64,000 bases of DNA, from the NCBI GenBank assembly GCA_041690355.1, contig JAWLHK010000002.1:283082-347081 (forward strand). The letters run 5' to 3'. Of the stretch, positions 37,210 to 64,000 are shown piece after piece. The notes beneath the pieces are model-generated. The model had not been told where the DNA came from. It searched no databases and worked only from the letters and a program-made list of their open reading frames with translations. The number at the start of each line of letters is the position of its first letter. Within the stretch, counting starts at the first letter, position 1. The translations under genes and the position numbers were made by a program. Source of the DNA: a bacterium. Lineage in GTDB: Bacteria > J088 > JAWLBW01.

Positions 37210-38231
37210 GCAGCCCGCAGGCCAACGACGTCCGTCCCGAGGGTGATGCCCTCGATACCGCATGGGAAGAACCGCTGCGTCCGGTTCGCCTTGACGACTA
37301 CATCGGCCAGGCCGAAATGAAGGCCAACCTGAAAGTCGGCATCCAGGCGGCGCGCCAGCGTGGCGAACCCCTGGGGCACGCGCTGTTCTTCGGCCCGCCG
37401 GGGCTGGGTAAGACGACGCTCGCGCACATCATCGCCACCGAGATGGGGGGAGGCCTGCGCTCGACCGCGGGCCCCGTGCTGTTGCGCCAGGGAGATCTGG
37501 CGGGCATCCTGACATCGCTCGAAGCCAACGACATTCTCTTCATCGACGAGATTCACCGCCTGCCGCGGGCCGTCGAAGAAATCCTCTACTCGGCCATGGA
37601 GGACTTCAAGCTCGACATCCTGCTCGGCGCGGGGCCTGGCGCCCAGAGCGTGAAGATTGACCTGCCCCGCTTCACCCTCGTCGGCGCCACGACCCGCGCG
37701 GGCTCGCTTTCGACGCCGCTGTACGACCGCTTCACCTTTCACGAACACCTGAATTTCTACACGCCGGTCGACCTGCAGCAGATCATCGAACGGGCGGCCC
37801 GGCTCAATCGCATTCCCATCGAACCCGAAGGGAGCCTGGCGCTCGCGGGCCGTTCGCGGGGCACCCCGCGCATCGCGCTGCGCCTGCTCAGCCGGGTGCG
37901 CGACTTTGCAGAAGTGGGCGACGGTGTGATAGATGGTAAGACGGCCTGCGAGGCTCTCGATCGGCTGCACGTCGACGAGGCAGGGCTGAATATGATGGAC
38001 CAGAAGATTCTCCTGACGATACTCGAGAAGTTCAGCGGGGGACCGGTGGGGCTTGAAACGCTGTCGGCGGCCGTGGGCGAAGAAAAAGAGACCATCGAGT
38101 TCACCATCGAACCGTACCTGCTGCAGCAGGGCTTTCTTGCGCGTACGCCGCGCGGCCGCGTGCTGACGGAGCATGCCTACCGTCATTTCGGACGGAGCAT
38201 TCCTTCGTCGCAGAGGAAACTTTTCCCGTGA
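37206..38231 (+). CDS. ruvB: Holliday junction branch migration ATPase RuvB
   Basis: Walker [10 protein letters not shown], Walker B FIDEIHR, full RuvB length. Confidence 0.95.
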
Positions 38232-40645
38232 ACCTTACGTCCTACCTCCTGCGCCAGACGCCTGTCGAGCCGACCCTTCTCGAGCAGATACTCGCGTTCA
38301 CGCAGGACAATCCCCAGGTCATCGCCGGCGCGGGCGTGCTGCTCGTGGTGCTTCTGGTGCTGCGCAAGTTCATCGGCTCCGATGCGGGCCCCAAACCGGG
38401 CAAGCTCCCCCGCAATCCGAAACAGGCCCGCCGGTGGGCCGAGCTGTCGATTCAGGCCAACAAGTTTCGCCAGGCGGGCGACTTCTACCTCATCGCCAAC
38501 GAATACGAAGCGGCTTACAACGCGTTTGCGCGCGCCGCCGCTTACGACGAGGCCGCCGAGGCGGCGCTTGCGCTCGGTGCCAAGGAAAAAGCGGCGATGA
38601 TGCTCGAAAAGGCGAAGAAGTATGTCGCCGCCGCGAAGCTGTATCAGCAGTCGGGACGCTACAACGACGCCGGCGAGGTCTTCGCGCGTGCCGGTAACGA
38701 TACCCTTGCCGCCGAAGCCTTCGAGGCGGCTGGCAACTGGGGCAAGGGGGCCCTGCACTTCGAGCGCGCCCGCAACCACGTCAAGGCGGCCGACCTCTAT
38801 GTGAAGGCGCGGGATTTCAAGAAGGCCGGCGCCCTGTACGAAGCTGCCTACCGCGAGGCGCGGCAGCAGTCGAAGGAGAACCCCGCGCGGACGCGCCAGG
38901 CCGGCGAGTTCGCGCTCAAGGCTGCGGGCTGCTTTGAGAAGATCAAGGAAGTGAAACCGGCCATCGCCGTTCTGAGCGACGCCGGCTTCTTCGAAAAGGC
39001 GGCCGGCCTGCTGCGCTCGACCAACGATCTCGAGGGGGCCGCCGACCTCTACGTCAAGGCCAACCTCCCGCTGCAGGCCGCCGATCTCTACGTGCAGATG
39101 GGCGACCCCGAGCGCGCCGCCCGCCTCAAGGGCGATGTCCTGCGTTCGGAGGGGAACGAGCTGGCCGCCGCCGATAATTACCGGCAGGCCGGTGAGTATC
39201 TGGAAGCGGCCGAAATCTTCCGCCGGCACAACCATTACGCCGAAGCCGCCTCGATGTATCTGCAGGTGGGCGATTACCTGCAGGCAGGCGAAATGTTCCT
39301 GCGCGCCAAGGACCCACGCAAGGCGGCCGAGGCCTGGGAGCGCGCGGGTGACTATCGCCGGGCCGCCGAGGTCTACCAGCGGCTCGGCGACGGCCGCAAG
39401 CAGAGCGAACTGCTCGAGCGCGCCGGCGAGTCGTTCGAAGCCGGGCTGAATTACTACCGTCTGAAGCTCCCCGACGAGGCCGTGCGGGTGCTTTCGTCGA
39501 TTCCCGGCGAGCATCCCTCGTTCCGCAAGGCCTGCAACCTGCTCGGCGACATCTATCGCGAAAAGGGAGACGCGGCGCAAGCCGTCAAGAAGTATCAGCA
39601 GGCGGTCGAGGGGCAGAAGGTCAGTCAGGCCAACCTGCATCCCTATTACAATCTGGCGCGCGTGCTCGAAGAGTCGGGCGACCCGCGCCTCGCCTTCGCC
39701 CTGTTTCGCAAGATTCAGCAGGAAGACAGCCAGTTTCAGGACGTGGCGGCGCGCGTCAACACGCTCAAGTCGCGCGTCGAAGAGGCCGATCGCAAAGAGC
39801 GCGAGAAGACGGCGCCCCCCGATACGAGCACGGCCACGCCCGTGGTCGCGCGCGCCAAGAAGCGTTATACGCTGTTGTCGGAGATCGGCCGCGGCGGCAT
39901 GGGAATCGTCTACAAGGCGCACGATCAGGTGCTCGACCGTGTCGTCGCCTTCAAGGTGCTCCCCTCCGATCTGCGCAACAATGACGTGGCGGTGAAGAAC
40001 TTCCTGCGCGAAGCCAAGGCCGCCGCCGGGCTGAACCACCCGAACATCGTCATCGTCTACGACGCCGGCGAAGAGGGTGACAACTATTATATCGCCATGG
40101 AGTACATCGAGGGGCGTACGCTGCGCGACATCGTCGTCGCCGACGGCAAGATTCCGCTGCCCGGGCTCATGGTCATCACGGCCCAGCTCTGCCGGGCCAT
40201 GGAGTACGCGCACGGCCGCAGCGTGGTTCATCGCGACATCAAGGGCTCGAACATCATGTGGACCGACGCCAAGCTCGTCAAGGTCATGGATTTCGGGCTC
40301 GCCAAGGTCATTCAGGAAGTCGTCAACTTTCAGACCGTGGTCGGCGGCACCCCGCACTACATGGCGCCCGAACAGATCCTGGGCGAAGAAATCGACCGCC
40401 GCGCCGACCTGTATTCGCTGGGGGTCACGCTCTACGAGTGCGCCACGGGCACCGTCCCGTTTCCCAAGGGCGACGTCGGCTACCATCACATCCACACCCC
40501 TGCACCCGACCCGCGCGAGTTCAACAAGGATGTACCCGAGGCCTATGCCAAGCTGCTTCTGAAGTGCCTCGTGAAGGATCCGGCGGCACGCTATCAGAGC
40601 GCCGCCGAAATCTACGAGGACCTCAAGGAAATTCGGGTGCGATAA
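38228..40645 (+). CDS. membrane-anchored Ser/Thr protein kinase with TPR-like helical repeat region
   Basis: 805 aa; N-terminal TM; about 450 aa of Ala-rich repeats; C-terminal kinase domain ([29 protein letters not shown]); GTG start. Confidence 0.85.
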
Positions 40646-55321: not shown

Positions 55322-55767
55322 CCGTCCGCGTTCCCGTCCGCGTCCTGCCGCACGCGGCCGACCTCCCGCTGCCTGGCTACGCGACGGCTCACGCCGCCGG
55401 ACTCGATCTGCTCGCCGCCGTCGACGCCGACGTCCTGCTGGCTCCGATGCAGCGCGCCGTTATCCCCACCGGGCTGTGCGTGGCGATCCCCGAAGGGTGG
55501 GAGGCGCAGGTGCGCCCCCGGTCGGGGCTTGCCCGCAATCACGGCGTCACCTGCCTGAACACGCCCGGAACGATCGATGCCGATTACCGCGGCGAGATCG
55601 GCGTTCTGCTCGTCAACCTCGGCGCCGAGCCCTTCGCCGTGTCTCGCGGCATGCGCATCGCCCAGCTCGTCGTGTCTCCGGTGGGCCGCATCGAGTGGGA
55701 ACCTGCGACCGAGCTTCCGCCCACGGTGCGCGGCGCGGGCGGCTTCGGCAGTACCGGCGTCGCCTGA
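55318..55767 (+). CDS. dut: dUTP diphosphatase
   Basis: 149 aa with dUTPase motifs ([20 protein letters not shown]). Confidence 0.9.
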
Positions 55768-55837
55768 GGCGCCCACCCGGAAATCTTCTGCCGGCAGGGT
55801 CCTTCAGCAGACGGTCGCCCCGGTTTACAATGGGCCT

Positions 55838-56611
55838 GTGCCCCGCGTCGATCTCCACTCTCATCTCATCCCCGGCGTCGACGACGGCGTGCGCACCCTT
55901 GATGATGCTCTGCGGTGCATCGAGGGGCTCGTCGAGCGTGGATACGATTGCCTCTGCACGACGCCCCACCAGGCCGACCGCTGGCGCCCCGACGCCGCCT
56001 TCCTGACCGCCGCCCTGCGCGGGTTGCGCGAAGAGATCGACCGGCGCGGGTGGCCCGTGCGGCTCGCCCTCGGCGCCGAGAACCATCTCGACGAGGTCTT
56101 TCTGACACGACTCGAGCAGGGGACCCTGCCCACGTACGGCCTCGCCGGCCGCGACGTGCTCGTGGAGTGCCCGGTTTGGTCCCGGCCGCCGTTTCTTGAA
56201 GAAATCCTCTTCCGCCTGCAGACAGGCGGGATACGGCCGGTTCTTGCCCACCCTGAGCGCTATCCGTGGCTGGTGCGCGACAGGGCGCGCGTTGCGGCCC
56301 TCCGGAACGCGGGGTGCCTGTTCCAGGTCGACCTCGGGAGCTTCGCCGGGGCATACGGCAGCGAGGCAAGACAGGCGGCGCGGCGGCTCGTGCGCGAGAA
56401 AGCCGTCGATCTCGTCGCGACCGACCTGCACGGTGCCGGCCGCCTGCCCGCCCTGGTCGACGCCGGGTGGCAGGCGCTGGCCGAACTGGCCGGCCCGGCC
56501 GAGCTGGCGCGGTGGGGATCTGCGACCCCCGGCGAGATCTTCGCGCGTGCCTGGACGGGCGCCTGGGGGCAAGAAATCGCTCACCCCCCCGAACCGTCTG
56601 CCGATATCTAA
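55838..56611 (+). CDS. PHP-domain protein-tyrosine phosphatase (CpsB/YwqE-like)
   Basis: N-terminal VDLHSHLIPGVDDG metal-binding motif; GTG start. Confidence 0.7.
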   Translation: MPRVDLHSHLIPGVDDGVRTLDDALRCIEGLVERGYDCLCTTPHQADRWRPDAAFLTAALRGLREEIDRRGWPVRLALGAENHLDEVFLTRLEQGTLPTYGLAGRDVLVECPVWSRPPFLEEILFRLQTGGIRPVLAHPERYPWLVRDRARVAALRNAGCLFQVDLGSFAGAYGSEARQAARRLVREKAVDLVATDLHGAGRLPALVDAGWQALAELAGPAELARWGSATPGEIFARAWTGAWGQEIAHPPEPSADI

Positions 56612-56662
56612 GCGGCTGATATCTCAGCAGTCCATTGCTGATTCACCCGGCCATTCGGTACA

Positions 56663-58576
56663 ATGGTCGTTTGGCCTCGCGATGTGGCGTCGCCGATGTC
56701 ACACGGGAATTTCGCCTGGGCGCAGCGCATGAGTCTTGTCGGCAACATTGAGGATCTTCCGCTCACGGACATCCTCCAGATCGTTTCGCTCAGCCGAAAG
56801 TCGGGTGTTCTGGCATTGAAGCGCGAGGGGGCTGAGGCCGCGATCTGCTTTCAGAACGGGCTCGTCGTCGCTGCCTCCATCACCGACTTCCCGCTCGACC
56901 TGCTGGCGTTTCTGCGCCGCAAGGGCCTGCTGACCCCGGCCGACGAAGCCGACGTCCGCCAGCAGGTACAGGACGGCATTCCGGTGGCCGAAGCGCTTGC
57001 AAACTTCGCGGTCCCCGACACCGTCATCGAAGGCTTTTCCCGCGCGGCGATCGAAAAGGTGGTCTACCGTCTGTTCACCTGGCGCGAAGGCTCGTTCACA
57101 TTCGATCTGATGGATGGGGCCGAAGAGCGTTTCCGCGCGAATCCGCTGCATCCGTTTCTCGCCCAGGGGGTGAACCCGCAGTTTCTCGCCATGGAAGGGG
57201 CGCGCCTGCAGGACGAGAGCGACTATTTCACGACGAAAAGCCCCGGCGCTGCGCCTTCGCCTGACCCCGCGCCGGCCCCGGCCGCGAAGCCCGAGCCCCG
57301 TCCCGCGCAGGCGGCCCCGAGCGAGCCTCCGGTCGCGCCTGCGCCGCCTCCCGCTCAGCCTGCGCGCGCCGCCGCCCCCGCGACGGCCCCCGCGACGGCC
57401 TCCGGTGCGGCCTCCAGTGCGGCCCCCCGGCCGTCGGCCGCCGCCGCTCCGGCGCCGGCCCTCAACGACCGGCCGCTCGTCGCCATCGTCGACAACGACG
57501 CCGTCGCGCTCAAGAACATCGAAAACGTGCTCCTGCAGCGCGGCTACGAAGTGGCCGCCTTTGCCCGCGTCGAGACCGTCATCAACGCCGTGCGCGAGCT
57601 CCTGCGCAAGGGGCGGCCGCTCATCGTGCTGGCCGACCTCGTCATGCCCAAGCGCGATGCGAGCGGGATGCTGGGCGGTCTCGAGGTGCTCGAGCTGCTG
57701 CGCGCCGAAGAGCAGGACGTGCCGATCGTCGTGCTGGCCGACATCAACAATGCCGATGCCGAAGCGCGCGCCCGCGAACTGGGGGCCGACGGCTACGTCT
57801 CGAAGCCGGGCCGCAAGTTCTACGTCAAAGAAAAAGAAAACAACACGCCCGAGTTTCTGACCTTCATGGCCGGCCTGGCCGCCGAGATCGAGCGGCTGAC
57901 CGAGAAGGCACGCGGCATTTCGGCGTCTCCGGCCGCCTCGCCGTTCGTCGATCTGAGCACCGAGCTCAAGGGCGAGCTCGAGGCTGCGACCCATGCCGTG
58001 AGCGCCACGGCCCCCGTCATGGTGCCGGGCATCGAAAAATCGCGCGGCCTCGACATGCTCAAGGAGATGGTTCGCGAACTCAACGATCCGCACTTCAACG
58101 CCGACGTCTCGCTGCTTGTGCTCCGTTTCGCCGTCGAGCTCATGGATCGGGCGGTGATCTTCGCCGTGACGCCGCAGGAAGTCATCGGCCTCGGGCAGGC
58201 AGGCATCGACGCCCCCGACGCGACGGCGCGCGTGCGCTCCATGCGGGTGCCCCTCGCCGGGAGCTCGATTTTCTCCGACGTCGTGCGCATGAACGGCGCG
58301 GTGCGCCGCAAACTCGATTCCAGTGAGTGGAACCGGTATATTCTCGACCAGCTCGGCGGCCAGCGCCCCGAAGAATCCTTCGCGGCCCCGATTTTCACGA
58401 GCCGGCGCATGGCCGCCGTCGTCTACGGCGACAATGCGTCGAGCGGGCGCCCCATCGGAGACGTCGATGCCCTCGAAATTTTTCTTTCGCACGCCGGCAT
58501 CGCCATGGAGCGGGCGCTGCTCGAGCGGCGGCTGCGCGACTTGACAGGCAGCCAACGCATCCACTATGCTGATTGA
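56663..58576 (+). CDS. DUF4388 - receiver (REC) - GAF-like multidomain regulator
   Basis: DUF4388-like N-terminus, Pro/Ala-rich linker, REC domain (LADLVMP, YVSKP), GAF-like C-terminus; true start may be ATG 56696 or 56729. Confidence 0.75.
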   Translation: MVVWPRDVASPMSHGNFAWAQRMSLVGNIEDLPLTDILQIVSLSRKSGVLALKREGAEAAICFQNGLVVAASITDFPLDLLAFLRRKGLLTPADEADVRQQVQDGIPVAEALANFAVPDTVIEGFSRAAIEKVVYRLFTWREGSFTFDLMDGAEERFRANPLHPFLAQGVNPQFLAMEGARLQDESDYFTTKSPGAAPSPDPAPAPAAKPEPRPAQAAPSEPPVAPAPPPAQPARAAAPATAPATASGAASSAAPRPSAAAAPAPALNDRPLVAIVDNDAVALKNIENVLLQRGYEVAAFARVETVINAVRELLRKGRPLIVLADLVMPKRDASGMLGGLEVLELLRAEEQDVPIVVLADINNADAEARARELGADGYVSKPGRKFYVKEKENNTPEFLTFMAGLAAEIERLTEKARGISASPAASPFVDLSTELKGELEAATHAVSATAPVMVPGIEKSRGLDMLKEMVRELNDPHFNADVSLLVLRFAVELMDRAVIFAVTPQEVIGLGQAGIDAPDATARVRSMRVPLAGSSIFSDVVRMNGAVRRKLDSSEWNRYILDQLGGQRPEESFAAPIFTSRRMAAVVYGDNASSGRPIGDVDALEIFLSHAGIAMERALLERRLRDLTGSQRIHYAD

Positions 58577-58602
58577 CGTTTTGCCTCCGGAGCCGCTATC
58601 GC

Positions 58603-58986
58603 GTGGGAAAAAAACTCCTGGTGGCCGAGGATTCGGCTACCATGCGACAACTGATCGTCGCCGCCCTCAGTCGGATTCCCGACCTTGAGATCGTCGAGTG
58701 CCAGAGCGGCTTTGAAGCCCTCAAGGCCATCCCACGGGTGCGTTTCGACATGGTGCTCACCGACATCAACATGCCCGACATCAACGGGCTCGAGTTGATC
58801 GGTTTTCTCAAGAGCAACCCCGATACCCGGAACATTCCCATCGTCATCATCACGACCGAGTCGAGCAAGCGTGATCAGGTGAAAGGCCTCGCCCTCGGGG
58901 CCAGCGAGTACCTGATCAAGCCGTTCTCTCCCGAGCGGCTGCAGGAGCTCGTCAGCCGGCACCTCCAGATACAGCTTCCCCAATGA
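58603..58986 (+). CDS. cheY: CheY-like single-domain response regulator
   Basis: KKLLVAEDS, MVLTDINMP (phospho-Asp), YLIKP; GTG start at 58603 preferred over TTG at 58573. Confidence 0.85.
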   Translation: MGKKLLVAEDSATMRQLIVAALSRIPDLEIVECQSGFEALKAIPRVRFDMVLTDINMPDINGLELIGFLKSNPDTRNIPIVIITTESSKRDQVKGLALGASEYLIKPFSPERLQELVSRHLQIQLPQ

Positions 58987-61058
58987 AAGACGACAAGGCC
59001 CTCCAGGAGTTTGTTTCGGAGAGCGAAGAGATCATCGAGGAGATCTTTCAGAACCTCCATGAGATCGAGGGGAGCATCGATCAGGGGCGCTACAACCCCG
59101 AAACCCTGAACGCAATCTTCCGCGGCGCGCACTCCATGAAGGGGCTCGCGGGGATGTTCGGTTTCGAGGGGATCCAGAGCTTCGCCCACCATCTCGAGGA
59201 CCTGCTCGACAAGCTGCGCCTGGGCAAGCTCACGTTCGACAAGCCGATTCTCAACCGGCTGTTTTCCAGCATGGAGTACCTGCGCAGCCTGGTGGCCGAC
59301 CGGGCGCAGGGAAAAGCCGACGACATGGCCGCCATCGACGAGCGCATCCGCGAGCTGCAGGCCATGCTCGCCGGGGGCAAGGGCGGGGCAGAGTCGAACC
59401 CCTTCGAGGGGGTAGCCCTCGATCCTGGCCTGCTCGGCGTGCTGACGGAGTACGAAGAATACCGCCTGAAGACCAACATCGAACAGGGTCATAACCTGTT
59501 CCGCGTGCGGGCGACGTTCGACATCATGAGTTTCGATCAGGAGCTCGACGGCATCACGAAGAAGCTCAAGGGGATGGGGGCCGAGCTCATCACGACCCTC
59601 CCGAGCCCCGAGCCGGCCAAGGAGATGGAGATCAAGTTCGATCTCGTCGCCGGAGGCGATCGGCCGCTGGCCGACCTCGAAGCCGAACTGGCCGCCCCGA
59701 ACGTGACCGTTACCGAAATCGAGCAGGCGAGCAAAAAAAAAAGGCCGTCGCCGGGAGTAGCCGGCACGGTTGAGAGCTTCCTCCAGGCGCAGGCGCCGAG
59801 TGGAACCGTGGTCGACGATGACGACGCCGGCCGCAGAGACGAGGCCACCTCAATCCGCAGCGTTTCGAAAACGGTGCGCGTCGATATCGACAAGCTCGAT
59901 ACGATCATGAACGTCGTGGGCGAGCTCGTTCTCTACTCGTCGCAGATCAACCGCTTCGCCGAAAAACTGCGCCTCGAGCAGGGCAACACGGGCCCCTCGG
60001 CGCAATTCTTCAAGGCCAGCCGCGCCCTCGAACGCAAACTGCGCGAACTGCAGGACGGCGTCATGGATACGCGCATGGTGCCGCTCAAGCAGGTGTTCGA
60101 CAAACTCCAGCGCATCGTGCGCAAGATTGTGCAGGACGTCGGCAAAGAAGCCGAGCTGGTCATTCTGGGCGGCGAGACCGAGCTCGATAAGCTGATCATC
60201 GAAGACCTCGGCGATCCGCTCATGCACATCATCCGCAATTCCGTCGACCACGGGCTCGAAACCCCCGACGAGCGCGAGAAGGCCGGCAAACCGCGCAAGG
60301 GAACGATCCGCATCCACGCCTACCAGCGCGGCAACCACGTCAACCTCGAGGTTGAGGACGACGGCCGCGGCATCGACCGCGAGCGCATCCGCAGGAAGGC
60401 GCGCGAAAAGCGGCTGGTCGACAACGTAGATGCCCTCAAGGACGACGAGGTGCTCAGCCTGATCTTCCTCCCCGGCTTCTCGACGGCCGAGAAGGTCTCT
60501 GAGCTTTCGGGGCGCGGCGTGGGACTCGATGTCGTCAAGGAGAACATCGCGCAGATGCGCGGGCTCATCAACATCGATACCGAACTCGGCAAGGGAACCA
60601 AGTTCACGCTCACCCTGCCGATCACGCTGGCCATCATCCGCGCCCTCATCATCGAGGCCCGCGGACGGCTCTATGCGATTCCGCTCAGTTCGATTCTCAC
60701 CTCGCTCATGATCGAGCCCCGGCAGATACGCACCATCGAGCGGCGCGAGGTCATGGAGTTCCGTCATCAGAATGCGGTGCAGACGCTGCCGCTGCTGCGG
60801 CTCGAGCGCATCTTCGACCTGCGCCGCGACACGGCCGAGGCGGGCGAAAGCCTCTACGTCGTCGTGCTCGAGCTGGCCGATCGCCGCCTGGGGCTGATCG
60901 TCGACCGCCTGCACGGACAGCAGGATATCGTCATCAAGTCGATCAGCGACGTCCTGCGCACGCGCGGCATCGCGGGGGCCACGGATCTGGGGAACCAGCA
61001 GACGATTCTCGTCCTGGACGCCGCGGCCCTGATCGACGAGGCCGCGCGCGGAGTCTGA
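58983..61058 (+). CDS. cheA: chemotaxis histidine kinase CheA
   Basis: Hpt (HSMKG), dimerisation and HATPase regions, C-terminal CheW-like domain; no fused receiver. Confidence 0.95.
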   Translation: MKDDKALQEFVSESEEIIEEIFQNLHEIEGSIDQGRYNPETLNAIFRGAHSMKGLAGMFGFEGIQSFAHHLEDLLDKLRLGKLTFDKPILNRLFSSMEYLRSLVADRAQGKADDMAAIDERIRELQAMLAGGKGGAESNPFEGVALDPGLLGVLTEYEEYRLKTNIEQGHNLFRVRATFDIMSFDQELDGITKKLKGMGAELITTLPSPEPAKEMEIKFDLVAGGDRPLADLEAELAAPNVTVTEIEQASKKKRPSPGVAGTVESFLQAQAPSGTVVDDDDAGRRDEATSIRSVSKTVRVDIDKLDTIMNVVGELVLYSSQINRFAEKLRLEQGNTGPSAQFFKASRALERKLRELQDGVMDTRMVPLKQVFDKLQRIVRKIVQDVGKEAELVILGGETELDKLIIEDLGDPLMHIIRNSVDHGLETPDEREKAGKPRKGTIRIHAYQRGNHVNLEVEDDGRGIDRERIRRKAREKRLVDNVDALKDDEVLSLIFLPGFSTAEKVSELSGRGVGLDVVKENIAQMRGLINIDTELGKGTKFTLTLPITLAIIRALIIEARGRLYAIPLSSILTSLMIEPRQIRTIERREVMEFRHQNAVQTLPLLRLERIFDLRRDTAEAGESLYVVVLELADRRLGLIVDRLHGQQDIVIKSISDVLRTRGIAGATDLGNQQTILVLDAAALIDEAARGV

Positions 61059-61060
61059 TC

Positions 61061-61876
61061 ATGTACGAGGAATTTTTCGGACTCAGCGCCCGCCCGTTTC
61101 AGAAGACCCCCGATCCCGCATTTCTCTATCGCGGACGCAAGCACGCCGAGGCGCTCACGCGCATGATATACGCGGCCGAAGAGCGCGAGCTCATGGTGCT
61201 CACCGGTGAGATCGGCGCCGGCAAGACCACGCTCACGCGCGCCCTCGCCGACGAACTTCCCGAAGACCGGTATCGCATCGTCCTGCTCATCAATCCCCGC
61301 ATCTCGGCGCTGCAGCTGCTTCAGGCCCTGGCCGAGCGGCTCGGGCTCGAGAACGCGCCCCGGCAGCGGGTGCGCCTGCTCGAGGCCGTCCAGGCGCGCC
61401 TTTACGAGCTCGATCAGCAGGGGGTGACGCCTGTGCTGATCATCGACGAAGCCCAGATGCTCCCCGGCAAGGACATCTTCGACGAGCTGCGGCTCATTAC
61501 GAACTACCAGCTCGACGATCGCAATCTGCTGGCCGTTCTTCTCGTCGGTCAGCCCGAACTGAGCAGGCGCCTCGCACACCCGAGCTATCGCGCATTGCAG
61601 CAACGAGTGGGAATCCGGTATCATCTTGAGGCACTGGATGAACAGGAAGTGCGGGAATATGTTGACTTTCGCACGGAAGTTGCCGGGCGCGGCGCGCCGC
61701 TTTTCACCACAGAGGCGGTCGCCGCACTGTTCCGTCTGAGCGGCGGCATACCCCGCGTCATCAACAATCTTGCGGCCAGCGCGTTGCTGAGCGGCTTCGG
61801 CAAGGGCGAAGACCCGGTCGACGCCGCTTCGGTCGAAGACGCGGCCCGCGAGCTTCAGCTGGTGCAGGTGGGGTGA
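61061..61876 (+). CDS. ExeA/GspA-like AAA ATPase
   Basis: FGL..RPF N-terminal motif, Walker A GEIGAGKTT, Walker B LIIDEAQ, GIPRVIN C-terminal motif. Confidence 0.8.
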   Translation: MYEEFFGLSARPFQKTPDPAFLYRGRKHAEALTRMIYAAEERELMVLTGEIGAGKTTLTRALADELPEDRYRIVLLINPRISALQLLQALAERLGLENAPRQRVRLLEAVQARLYELDQQGVTPVLIIDEAQMLPGKDIFDELRLITNYQLDDRNLLAVLLVGQPELSRRLAHPSYRALQQRVGIRYHLEALDEQEVREYVDFRTEVAGRGAPLFTTEAVAALFRLSGGIPRVINNLAASALLSGFGKGEDPVDAASVEDAARELQLVQVG

Positions 61877-61877
61877 G

Positions 61878-62744
61878 GTGGATTTACTCGAGATCCGCAA
61901 GAAAGCGCGCGCGCAGAAGAAAGCCGGGTCGACCAAGGACGATGCCCCCGGGGCGTCTGCGCCTGCCGTCGTCCCGGAGGCAGCTGCTGTTGCCGAAGCG
62001 CCTCCTGCGGCCGCATGGCCGGCCGGGGCCGTGCAGCACGTGCCCGCGCCTGCGGCGACCCCTGCGGCTTCAGACGAACCGGAAGTGCCCGCCTGGACGG
62101 CCGACGAGTTCGAGCATTTCCTGCAGAGCGGACCTTCTGCGCCCCCGGCGGCGGCCTTCGCCGCGCCTGCGTCACAGGCTGTGCCGGGCGGCTATCCCGC
62201 AGGGTCGGCCAGGGGCGACAGCCTGCGCGACTCGCTGCTCAACGCCGACTTTCTCGAACTGGCGACCGAAGAGCTTTACCGCCACACGTACGACGTCGAG
62301 ACGCCCGACACGGCATTCCGGCAGGTGCTGGCCTGTCTGCTCGCCGACGAGGAGTACGGCATCGACATTCACGGCATCCGCGAAATCATCAAGCCGCGCG
62401 ACATCACCGAGGTGCCGCGCGCCCCGCGCTACGTGCTCGGGATCATCACCCTGCGCGGCCGGGTCATCCCGGTGCTCGACCTGCGCGAGCGCCTGGGACT
62501 CAGCGTGTCGCCGTTGGGGCGCCAGAGTAAAATTGTCGTCGTGGCGCACCGGGAGAGCTTCTTCGGGCTGCTCGTCGACGCCGTCATCGACGTCGCCAAG
62601 ATTCCCGAGCCCTCCATCGAGAGCACGAGCGCGGTCATGGTCGGGGTCGACGGCAAGTATCTCGAAGGGATCGGCCGCGTCGGAGATGAAATGATCATCC
62701 TGCTCAACCTCGGCGAAGTTCTGAATATCGAGGGCCAGTCGTGA
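61878..62744 (+). CDS. CheW-domain protein with Pro/Ala-rich N-terminal extension
   Basis: About 140 aa low-complexity extension then CheW domain; GTG start. Confidence 0.8.
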   Translation: MDLLEIRKKARAQKKAGSTKDDAPGASAPAVVPEAAAVAEAPPAAAWPAGAVQHVPAPAATPAASDEPEVPAWTADEFEHFLQSGPSAPPAAAFAAPASQAVPGGYPAGSARGDSLRDSLLNADFLELATEELYRHTYDVETPDTAFRQVLACLLADEEYGIDIHGIREIIKPRDITEVPRAPRYVLGIITLRGRVIPVLDLRERLGLSVSPLGRQSKIVVVAHRESFFGLLVDAVIDVAKIPEPSIESTSAVMVGVDGKYLEGIGRVGDEMIILLNLGEVLNIEGQS

Positions 62745-63268
62745 AGACCGAATACCGTAGCCGGCACGATGAGATTCAGCTTGCGGTGCTCGTGGTCGGG
62801 GGCGAGAAGTTCGCGCTCGACATCATGCGCATCATGGAAATACAGCGGTCGCAGACCATCACGCGCATGCCCAAGGTGCCCGACTTTCTCGAAGGGGTCA
62901 TCAACCTGCGCGGTGCGGTCATTCCGGTCGTCGACATGCGCAAGCGGCTGGAGCTCACCGTCACGCCGACCTCGCGCAAGACGCGCATCGTCATCGCCAA
63001 CGTCGGTGGCAAGATCGTCGGCCTGCTCGTCGACGAGGTCAGCGAAGTCATTCGCGTCGCCCGCTCAGACATCGGTCCGGCGCCCGCCCTGACCCGCGGC
63101 ATCGGATCCGAGTACATCATGGGGGTCGTCAAGCGCAAAGACGAGCTGCTCCTGCTGCTCGATTTCGAACGCATCCTCAGCACCGAAGAACGCGTGAAGA
63201 TCGACGAGATCAAGAAGCGCGCCCGCGAAACGGCGCAGCCGGCGGGAGAGGCGGTGAAGCCGGCATGA
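62741..63268 (+). CDS. cheW: chemotaxis coupling protein CheW
   Basis: 175 aa single CheW domain; GTG start overlapping upstream stop. Confidence 0.9.
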   Translation: MKTEYRSRHDEIQLAVLVVGGEKFALDIMRIMEIQRSQTITRMPKVPDFLEGVINLRGAVIPVVDMRKRLELTVTPTSRKTRIVIANVGGKIVGLLVDEVSEVIRVARSDIGPAPALTRGIGSEYIMGVVKRKDELLLLLDFERILSTEERVKIDEIKKRARETAQPAGEAVKPA

Positions 63269-64000
63269 GCGCGCGCAACTCCAGCATCGCCAGGCAGTTC
63301 ATCACCTTCATTTCGGTCGTCGTGGCCGTTCTGTCGGGCGTGCTCTCGATCGTCTTCTTCTTCAATTCCCGGACGCTGCTGAACGAAGAGCTCGATCGGC
63401 GCGGCCTGCTCATCACGCGGCAGCTCGGCTACGGGGCCGACGTCGCGATCATGAACAACTCGCTGATGTACCTCGACCAGAAAATCGACAATTTTCTCGG
63501 CGACAGCGACATCGCGTTCATCATCTATCGGAACAAGGAAGGGCTCGTCCTGCGCGACTGGTATCAGGAGCAGGACATGCGCGACGAGGTCAACAAGGAC
63601 CCGCAGGCCGACCGGTACCGATTTCGCGGCTACGAGATCCGCCACATCACGCGGCCGGTGACCTCGGTGACGACGACGCTCAGCGCCGATATCTTCGCCG
63701 TCTTCGGTGAAGAAGAAAGCGCCGGTGAGTCGGCCGCCACGTCGACGGTCGAGACGGTAGGCCTGGTCGAAGTCGGCATCAGCACGAAGAACATTCTCGA
63801 GCGCCTGCAGGACATCCTCTACAAGGCCATCGGCATCGCCGTGACGGGCGTGCTCATGGCCATTCTGCTCTCGTATTTCTACATTACCTACACGACGCGT
63901 CCCCTGAAGCGCATGGTGGGTGCGGCGCGCAGCGTGGCCGAGGGCAATCTGGCCGTTTCGATTGACGTCGACTCCACCGACGAGATCGGCGACCTGGCCC
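63265..64000 (+). CDS. methyl-accepting chemotaxis protein, 5' part (continues beyond window end)
   Basis: ATG at 63265 overlaps the cheW stop; TM1, about 170-aa sensor region, TM2, HAMP onset (RPLKRMVGAARSVAEGNLAVSIDVDSTDEIGDLA); absent from the ORF track because no stop is reached. Confidence 0.8.
   Translation, partial: MSARNSSIARQFITFISVVVAVLSGVLSIVFFFNSRTLLNEELDRRGLLITRQLGYGADVAIMNNSLMYLDQKIDNFLGDSDIAFIIYRNKEGLVLRDWYQEQDMRDEVNKDPQADRYRFRGYEIRHITRPVTSVTTTLSADIFAVFGEEESAGESAATSTVETVGLVEVGISTKNILERLQDILYKAIGIAVTGVLMAILLSYFYITYTTRPLKRMVGAARSVAEGNLAVSIDVDSTDEIGDLA

Follow-up and report, generated by a model that had tools for sequence, protein, structure and literature searches.

The PATAN domain is the output domain of cyanobacterial PatA-type response regulators; that of PixE is by itself able to bind PilB1 and PilC and is sufficient for output (bioRxiv 10.1101/2021.06.11.447907). 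Non-flagellar chemotaxis-like pathways are common and their outputs are mostly unknown. The protein family described here heads one such pathway. It is represented in a 64,000-nucleotide stretch of bacterial DNA (contig JAWLHK010000002.1, positions 283,082 to 347,081, forward strand; this whole stretch is the window) by a regulator that combines a PATAN domain, a receiver (REC) and a C-terminal GAF domain, and that is encoded by the first gene of a che operon.

The closest described system is the Esn cluster of Geobacter sulfurreducens. Published descriptions give GSU2225 as EngA, GSU2224 as a response regulator, GSU2223 as CheY-6 and GSU2222 as CheA (PMC8242959); GSU2222 is also given as EsnC, GSU2221 as an ATPase and GSU2220 as EsnB (PMC5585712). 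The Esn genes are needed for electrode colonisation and not for Fe(III) oxide reduction (PMC5585712). GSU2221, the counterpart of the AAA_22 ATPase of the window, also scored in electrode transposon sequencing. A transposon insertion in GSU2224 leads to an oxygen-tolerant strain (PMC8242959). The 'beta-group' che cluster (Tran et al. 2008) is delta-proteobacterial, includes cheA, cheW, cheB and cheR, includes neither mcp nor an HD gene and is linked to extracellular matrix. The Geobacter pathway is needed for electrode colonisation and has been linked to extracellular matrix and oxygen tolerance, and its regulator has so far only been labelled 'response regulator': a literature search found neither a domain-level or biochemical study of GSU2224 nor a paper describing a PATAN-receiver-GAF protein.

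A G. sulfurreducens protein (P0074) is 39% identical to the window regulator across 98% of its length. The gene order at its locus is Era, EngA, regulator, CheY, CheA, AAA_22 ATPase, CheW. Since this order matches the published descriptions from GSU2225 to GSU2220, P0074 is taken as the counterpart of GSU2224.

Domain architecture of the regulator and its family

The gene lies in an uninterrupted forward-strand open reading frame (ORF), called at 56663-58576 (637 amino acids, aa) in the preliminary description. The frame is open over this whole length; its start is not retained. Homologs of the regulator, 188 in all, were found among 5.8 billion proteins, and the best 120 of them were compared residue by residue: 13 form the window clade (the window protein and 12 close relatives) and 107 are distant, mostly of Geobacter type. 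MSLVG is the N-terminus in 113 of these 120. In a 40-sequence alignment M1-S2-L3-V4-G5 is invariant and the first 22 codons of the called ORF are aligned by no homolog. Judging from these homolog starts, the true start is ATG 56729, 22 codons (66 nt) past 56663. The -10 box of a candidate promoter, TACAAT, covers ATG 56663, which is a further argument for ATG 56729. A single database entry matches the window regulator exactly; with its 637 aa it is over-extended. Residues are numbered below in the 615-aa protein, unless the 637-aa ORF is mentioned.

An antisense ORF (56699-58564, minus strand, 621 codons) mirrors the gene, as is typical of DNA with 64-73% GC. It was rejected as a high-GC artefact: all homology is on the forward strand.

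The N-terminal domain had been described as DUF4388-like. Pfam PF14332 matches aa 27-186 of the 637-aa ORF (E about 6e-21, 75 bits against a cut-off of 25) and was found in all 40 regulator relatives searched. The AlphaFold2 model of the domain has a predicted local distance difference test score (pLDDT) of 91 and a predicted template modelling score of 0.85. The domain carries an alpha-helical insertion, as in PatA-type regulators.

The C-terminal domain is a divergent GAF. Its hit to Pfam GAF_2 spans the whole profile and is sub-threshold (E 0.025, 15.2 bits against 28.6), so the 'GAF-like C-terminus' of the preliminary description does not hold for the window protein by Pfam; it holds by its relatives and by its fold. 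Of 40 family members, 25 gave GAF_2 or GAF matches, with E-values of up to 1 and a best value of 2.9e-6. For residues 390-615, an AlphaFold2 model based on an alignment of 26 sequences has a core pLDDT above 90 and the topology helix, two strands, helix, strand, helix, strand, helix, two strands, long helix. The antiparallel sheet with helices on its flanks and the terminal helix pair of the GAF fold are present. When this model was compared with the Protein Data Bank (PDB) by Foldseek, GAF domains took all of the top 50 places (probability 1.00). At the level of the modelled fold, the GAF nature of this domain is regarded as proven. It is also the best conserved domain: identity to the distant clade is 48% for GAF, 44% for PATAN and 34% for REC. 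A profile search of PDB sequences retrieved receivers only, with no solved PATAN or close GAF relative found by sequence.

The GAF-subtype profile was searched against 1.84 billion representative proteins, and the best 150 matches were typed with custom domain hidden Markov models (HMMs); Pfam agrees with this typing for the ten of them on which it was run. The search gave 421 matches at E<=1e-30, and the GAF domain is C-terminal in every one. Among the best 150, 68 are PATAN-REC-GAF and 52 are PATAN-GAF proteins whose 357-440 aa leave no space for a receiver; the remaining matches are short and probably fragments. This GAF subtype is almost exclusively paired with PATAN. About one third of the family representatives have no receiver, and their operon position is unchanged: in 4 of 4 loci the receiver-less gene directly precedes a CheY-type gene for a single-domain receiver, after which comes CheA in three loci and an unannotated gene in one. 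Because the receiver-less relatives keep this place, what stays constant in the first gene of such operons is, on the sequences compared, PATAN together with the GAF subtype; the receiver is an optional part of it.

The two halves of the window protein are separated by a low-complexity stretch, which had been described as a Pro/Ala-rich linker: it consists of 38% Ala and 29% Pro (66% together). It is unalignable and of variable length among homologs.

The receiver, also described before, is called by Pfam as Response_reg PF00072 (E 2e-14; aa 273-383 of the 637-aa ORF); NCBIfam adds only the receiver. BLASTP against Escherichia coli CheY gives the following equivalences: D255, D12; N256, D13 (replaced); D303, D57 (phospho-acceptor); A337, T87 (replaced); Y356, Y106; K359, K109. 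The acidic pair after beta-1 is incomplete (D255 kept, Asn for D13) and there is no Thr or Ser at the T87 position. All 13 window-clade sequences have N256 and A337. The distant clade keeps Asp at the D13 position in 106 of 107 sequences and has Ala, Ser and Thr at the T87 position in 44, 39 and 24 of its 107 sequences. D303 and K359 are invariant in 120 of 120 sequences, and the first acidic Asp/Glu is invariant or nearly so. Because the second Asp of the acidic pocket and the Thr/Ser switch residue are lost in the window clade, phosphorylation of its receiver is likely to be weak or atypical.

Compared with E. coli CheY, the receiver contains six additional residues (ASGMLG) after the phospho-acceptor (D57) loop. 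This insertion (57650-57667, aa 308-313) is family-specific, of the form MPxxD-(A/G)SGxLGG-LE. Around it, L315, G316 and G317 do not vary, and at least 90% of sequences have G313.

Proposed role and alternative readings

The proposal is that the regulator serves a chemotaxis-like (non-flagellar) pathway of Esn type as its PatA-type output or adaptor, with PATAN and GAF as the core of the protein and the receiver as an accessory (probability about 0.55). The working core would be PATAN and the C-terminal GAF domain. PATAN would be the partner-binding output and, by analogy with PixG and PixE, may bind the N-terminal part or the platform of an ATPase of type IV pilus (T4P) or type II secretion system (T2SS) class. 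The GAF domain would be a regulatory module, involved in dimerisation, partner control or sensing of a small ligand, and the Pro/Ala linker a flexible tether between the two halves. Through the receiver, the neighbouring CheA would contribute an accessory, possibly inefficient, input; the canonical CheY encoded next door may carry the signal in addition to the receiver or in its place.

Several points weigh against this proposal. In Synechocystis only phosphorylated PixG binds PilB1, and PixH antagonises PixG (PMC11181946). The invariance of D303 and K359 argues that the receiver is still used where it is present. Asn at the CheY D13 position may still permit some phosphorylation, as in CheY mutants. 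The receiver-less proteins were drawn from clustered representatives and from contigs of metagenomes, and both a gain and a loss of the receiver are compatible with them. In the annotated parts of the window no pilB, pilC or gspE gene was found and no binding partner was identified. The equation of the Geobacter cluster with the beta group is by gene content only, as no locus tags are given in the Tran paper or its supplements.

The first two of these points equally favour a classical two-regulator output of the type known for Synechocystis PixG/PixH and Pseudomonas PilG/PilH: CheA would phosphorylate D303, PATAN would be freed or activated, CheY would compete and GAF would modulate. The near-invariant acidic and lysine positions, an operon layout identical to that of the cyanobacterial Tax systems and the D-D-D pocket kept by the distant (Geobacter) clade are consistent with it. 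The substitutions found in every window-clade sequence are not: receivers without the second Asp or without Thr/Ser are rated 'unlikely' to be phosphorylated (Han et al.). Even in the distant clade the T87 position is divided among Ala, Ser and Thr, with Ala the most frequent, and about a third of the family representatives dispense with the receiver in the same operon position. The degenerate acidic pocket and the receiver being dispensable in many relatives weaken any simple model in which CheA phosphorylates the regulator. The classical output is considered quite possible, though less likely than the reading with an accessory receiver.

The proposal of a PATAN-GAF core can also be carried further. 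PATAN and GAF may form an ancient two-domain effector that is itself unphosphorylated, that reads phosphorylated CheY or a GAF ligand and that signals to a pilus/secretion-type or AAA_22 ATPase; the receiver of the window clade would then be a pseudo-receiver. This stronger form is speculative and unlikely. If it is true, the PATAN-GAF effector with its pseudo-receiver would represent a novel route from a Che pathway to its target.

An improbable reading gives the main input to a second messenger, bound either by the GAF domain (cyclic nucleotide or small ligand) or by the MshEN-like insertion of PATAN (cyclic di-GMP, c-di-GMP), with a cyclic-dinucleotide link as proposed for the Esn network, which includes a diguanylate cyclase (PMC5585712). 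In fold, the domain is nearest to GAFs that bind ligands, cAMP and cGMP among them, yet many GAF domains bind no ligand. The best structural matches of the helical insertion are GSPII and MshEN domains, including the c-di-GMP-binding GSPII-B and MshEN. The c-di-GMP motif of MshEN is a 24-residue motif (RLGxx...) present twice in tandem, the two copies being 5 residues apart (Wang et al. 2016, PMC5013675). One relaxed MshEN motif was found in 49 of 120 family members, but the tandem pair in none, and the window protein and 11 close relatives scanned have no match even to the relaxed motif. Binding of c-di-GMP by the insertion of the window protein was rejected on the absence of this motif.

A phosphate sink or a DNA-binding transcription regulator is very improbable: several receivers per CheA are common, but a sink needs the receiver only and the receiver is the dispensable part, whereas DNA binding, an early prediction for PatA-type proteins, is opposed by Han et al. 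and by the lack of a helix-turn-helix or any other DNA-binding domain in the Pfam and NCBIfam results.

Upstream region, operon and neighbourhood

The coordinates of the features are given in the table.

Features of the regulator gene, its operon and its receiver-less relatives. Positions are those of the window, except for the last row, where they are those of the loci named. Residues: 615-aa numbering of the regulator.
Feature	Position	Strand	Residues or length	Basis
Conserved cTGAwAT element, possible UP-like or regulator site	56616..56623	+		5-way upstream alignment
Sigma-70-like promoter candidate: TTGCTG (-35), 18-nt spacer, TACAAT (-10)	56635..56664	+		Read directly; 5-way alignment
PATAN-REC-GAF regulator coding sequence, corrected start	56729..58576	+	615 aa + TGA	Homolog starts
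PATAN (DUF4388 / PatA_N, PF14332)	56741..57220	+	aa 5-164	Pfam, AlphaFold2
Four-helix insertion ('alpha-clip') inside PATAN	56900..57073	+	aa 58-115	GSPII/MshEN-like fold
Pro/Ala-rich low-complexity linker	57233..57472	+	aa 169-248	Composition
Receiver (REC)	57479..57811	+	aa 251-361	Pfam PF00072
Divergent GAF domain	58043..58549	+	aa ~439-607	Fold; family HMM matches
Canonical single-domain CheY	58603..58986	+	127 aa	Pfam E 1.3e-25; sequence read
CheA (Hpt, dimerisation, HATPase_c and CheW-like domains)	58983..61058	+		Pfam, NCBIfam
AAA_22 (ExeA / PEP-CTERM-ATPase-like) ATPase inside the che operon	61061..61876	+		Pfam E 1.2e-25
Two CheW genes	61878-62744 and 62741-63268	+		Pfam CheW E 2.6e-34 and 1e-37
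Transmembrane HAMP chemoreceptor (MCP), 5′ part, runs off the window	63265..64000	+		HAMP E 1.9e-11
Receiver-less PATAN-GAF genes, first position, uncultured lineages	L086/L087 6001-7224; L088 1032-2234; L089 147-1316; L090 543-1757		389-407 aa	

The upstream region was aligned with those of four relatives (L001, L083, L084, L085) whose regulator proteins are 58-69% identical to that of the window. The promoter-like arrangement given in the preliminary description is present as described (TTGCTG at 56635-56640, TACAAT at 56659-56664, 18 nt between them), and TTGnCn-17/18-TAC(A/C)AT is kept in all five aligned regions. A sigma-70 and terminator consensus scan of 56300-56900 called nothing; TTGCTG fails it because it matches the consensus at only 3 of 6 positions. 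The comparative support for a promoter upstream of the regulator is modest but real. The cTGAwAT element lies about 12-16 nt 5′ of the -35 box, and its T18, G19 and A20 are invariant in the alignment. It overlaps the second copy of GATATCT, a direct repeat located in the preliminary description at 56603-56609 and 56618-56624. Both copies of this repeat are where they were described; their significance is not supported. GATATCT occurs three times in the window against 2.2 expected, and a count of at least three was reached in 38 of 100 shuffles. The first copy shares bases with the stop codon of the gene before it, and the upstream regions of the four relatives do not keep the pair. The repeat was rejected as a regulator site. 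A sigma-54 -24/-12 site was also rejected: when the upstream sequence was read by eye, no correctly spaced GG was seen before TTGC. An Rfam scan of the window found a single tRNA, distant from the regulator gene.

From the regulator, the gene order is CheY, CheA, AAA_22 ATPase, two CheW and MCP, and the genes abut or overlap. A tblastn comparison covered 80 related loci, mostly from Desulfuromonadales, and found in nearly all of them the order PATAN-REC-GAF, CheY, CheA, AAA_22, CheW, (CheY), CheW, an extra CheY gene often being found between the CheW genes. The earlier reading of a three-domain regulator heading a che cluster is supported overall by HMMs, fold and gene order, the downstream CheY, CheA, ATPase and CheW being annotated and their order conserved. 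Among species-representative genomes 374 loci were found, mostly in Geobacteraceae, Desulfuromonadales and unclassified 'Deltaproteobacteria' metagenome-assembled genomes (MAGs); the best of them belongs to an unclassified MAG (59% identity).

CheY starts at GTG 58603, with GGAG 10 nt upstream, and its relatives also have 127 aa; the mechanical ORF (58573-58986) begins at TTG 58573 and is longer (137 aa). The AAA_22 ATPase is not a standard che component and is present between CheA and CheW in nearly all of the 80 related loci. Its score with TIGR03015, the model of a PEP-CTERM-associated ATPase, is 233 bits and does not reach the cut-off (324). The first CheW protein is extended at its N-terminus by about 145 residues rich in Ala and Pro; its CheW domain is at aa 149-283. 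Full-length orthologs (703 aa) of the truncated MCP, in L001 and L083, contain HAMP and MCPsignal domains. Downstream, relatives encode a Zn-ribbon-receiver protein and a 650-residue protein with HEAT/PBS-lyase-like repeats (L001 16317-19339; L013 16757-20773; L081 16686-21473); the Geobacter-type loci L013 and L081 then carry CheR, and L081 also CheB. The HEAT-repeat gene is reminiscent of the HEAT-repeat partner of Myxococcus Che7.

Upstream, genes for PNPase, an M16 peptidase, dUTPase and a CpsB-type phosphatase are shared by all four close relatives, and S15 is also found in the two annotated that far. The ORF directly upstream (55577-56611) has been called too long: its CpsB/PHP tyrosine-phosphatase domain does not begin before residue 91, its relatives have 245-252 aa and, in its long form, it runs into the dUTPase gene. 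Its true start is likely to lie near 55850. A Ser/Thr protein kinase with tetratricopeptide repeats (805 aa) is encoded at 38228-40645, about 16 kb upstream of the regulator. Other genes of the window encode the housekeeping proteins BipA, NusA, IF-2 and PNPase, a GH92 glycosidase and a MacB/FtsX transporter.

Comparison with known systems

The insertion of PATAN shares a helical hairpin repeat with the MshEN/GSPII domains of T4P and T2SS ATPases (MshE, PilF, PilB, XpsE). It differs from them in two respects: it is devoid of the tandem 24-residue c-di-GMP motif, and it lies inside a beta-sheet domain instead of N-terminal to an ATPase. The GAF structures nearest to the C-terminal domain are those of PtsP/EI-Ntr (3trc, 3ci6), of Geobacter GAF proteins (3eea, 3e0y) and of cyclic nucleotide-binding GAFs (5w10, PDE2/5/6). 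Sequence identity to these structures is 9-18%, and the GAF of the window, unlike them, is below the Pfam cut-off and almost only found fused to PATAN.

PixG, PilG/TaxP, PixE and PatA resemble the window protein in beginning with a PATAN domain that contains a helical insertion and in having a receiver after it. The layout of the cyanobacterial Tax systems, in which the PatA-type regulator is first in the chemosensory operon and CheY directly next, is also that of the window. The cyanobacterial proteins are two-domain PATAN-REC regulators, whereas the architecture of the window protein is PATAN-REC-GAF: a conserved C-terminal GAF, a long Pro/Ala linker and the six-residue insertion after the phospho-acceptor loop are added. 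In addition, the equivalents of D13 and T87 are lost in the window clade, the host is not a cyanobacterium, the operon includes the AAA_22 ATPase and those of relatives include the Zn-ribbon-REC and HEAT-repeat genes.

The three domains and the gene order of the window are those of the Geobacter GSU2224 type. The Geobacter protein differs from that of the window by a D-D-D acidic pocket, a short acidic linker and one MshEN-like motif. Its cluster includes no MCP gene, the receptor EsnA being encoded elsewhere, whereas the operon of the window clade carries one; by gene content, the G. sulfurreducens locus fits the beta group of Tran et al.

Three observations are new here: the tie between this GAF subtype and PATAN, the receiver-less third of the family in the same operon position, and the Asn and Ala substitutions of the window clade. 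A vague annotation is made specific by the conserved GAF, previously unannotated, by its pairing with PATAN and by the absent or degenerate receiver; for the window itself, a corrected start codon and a conserved promoter candidate are added. The window protein joins an existing, widespread and mechanistically unstudied family of GSU2224 type, which is a variant of the PatA-type kind.

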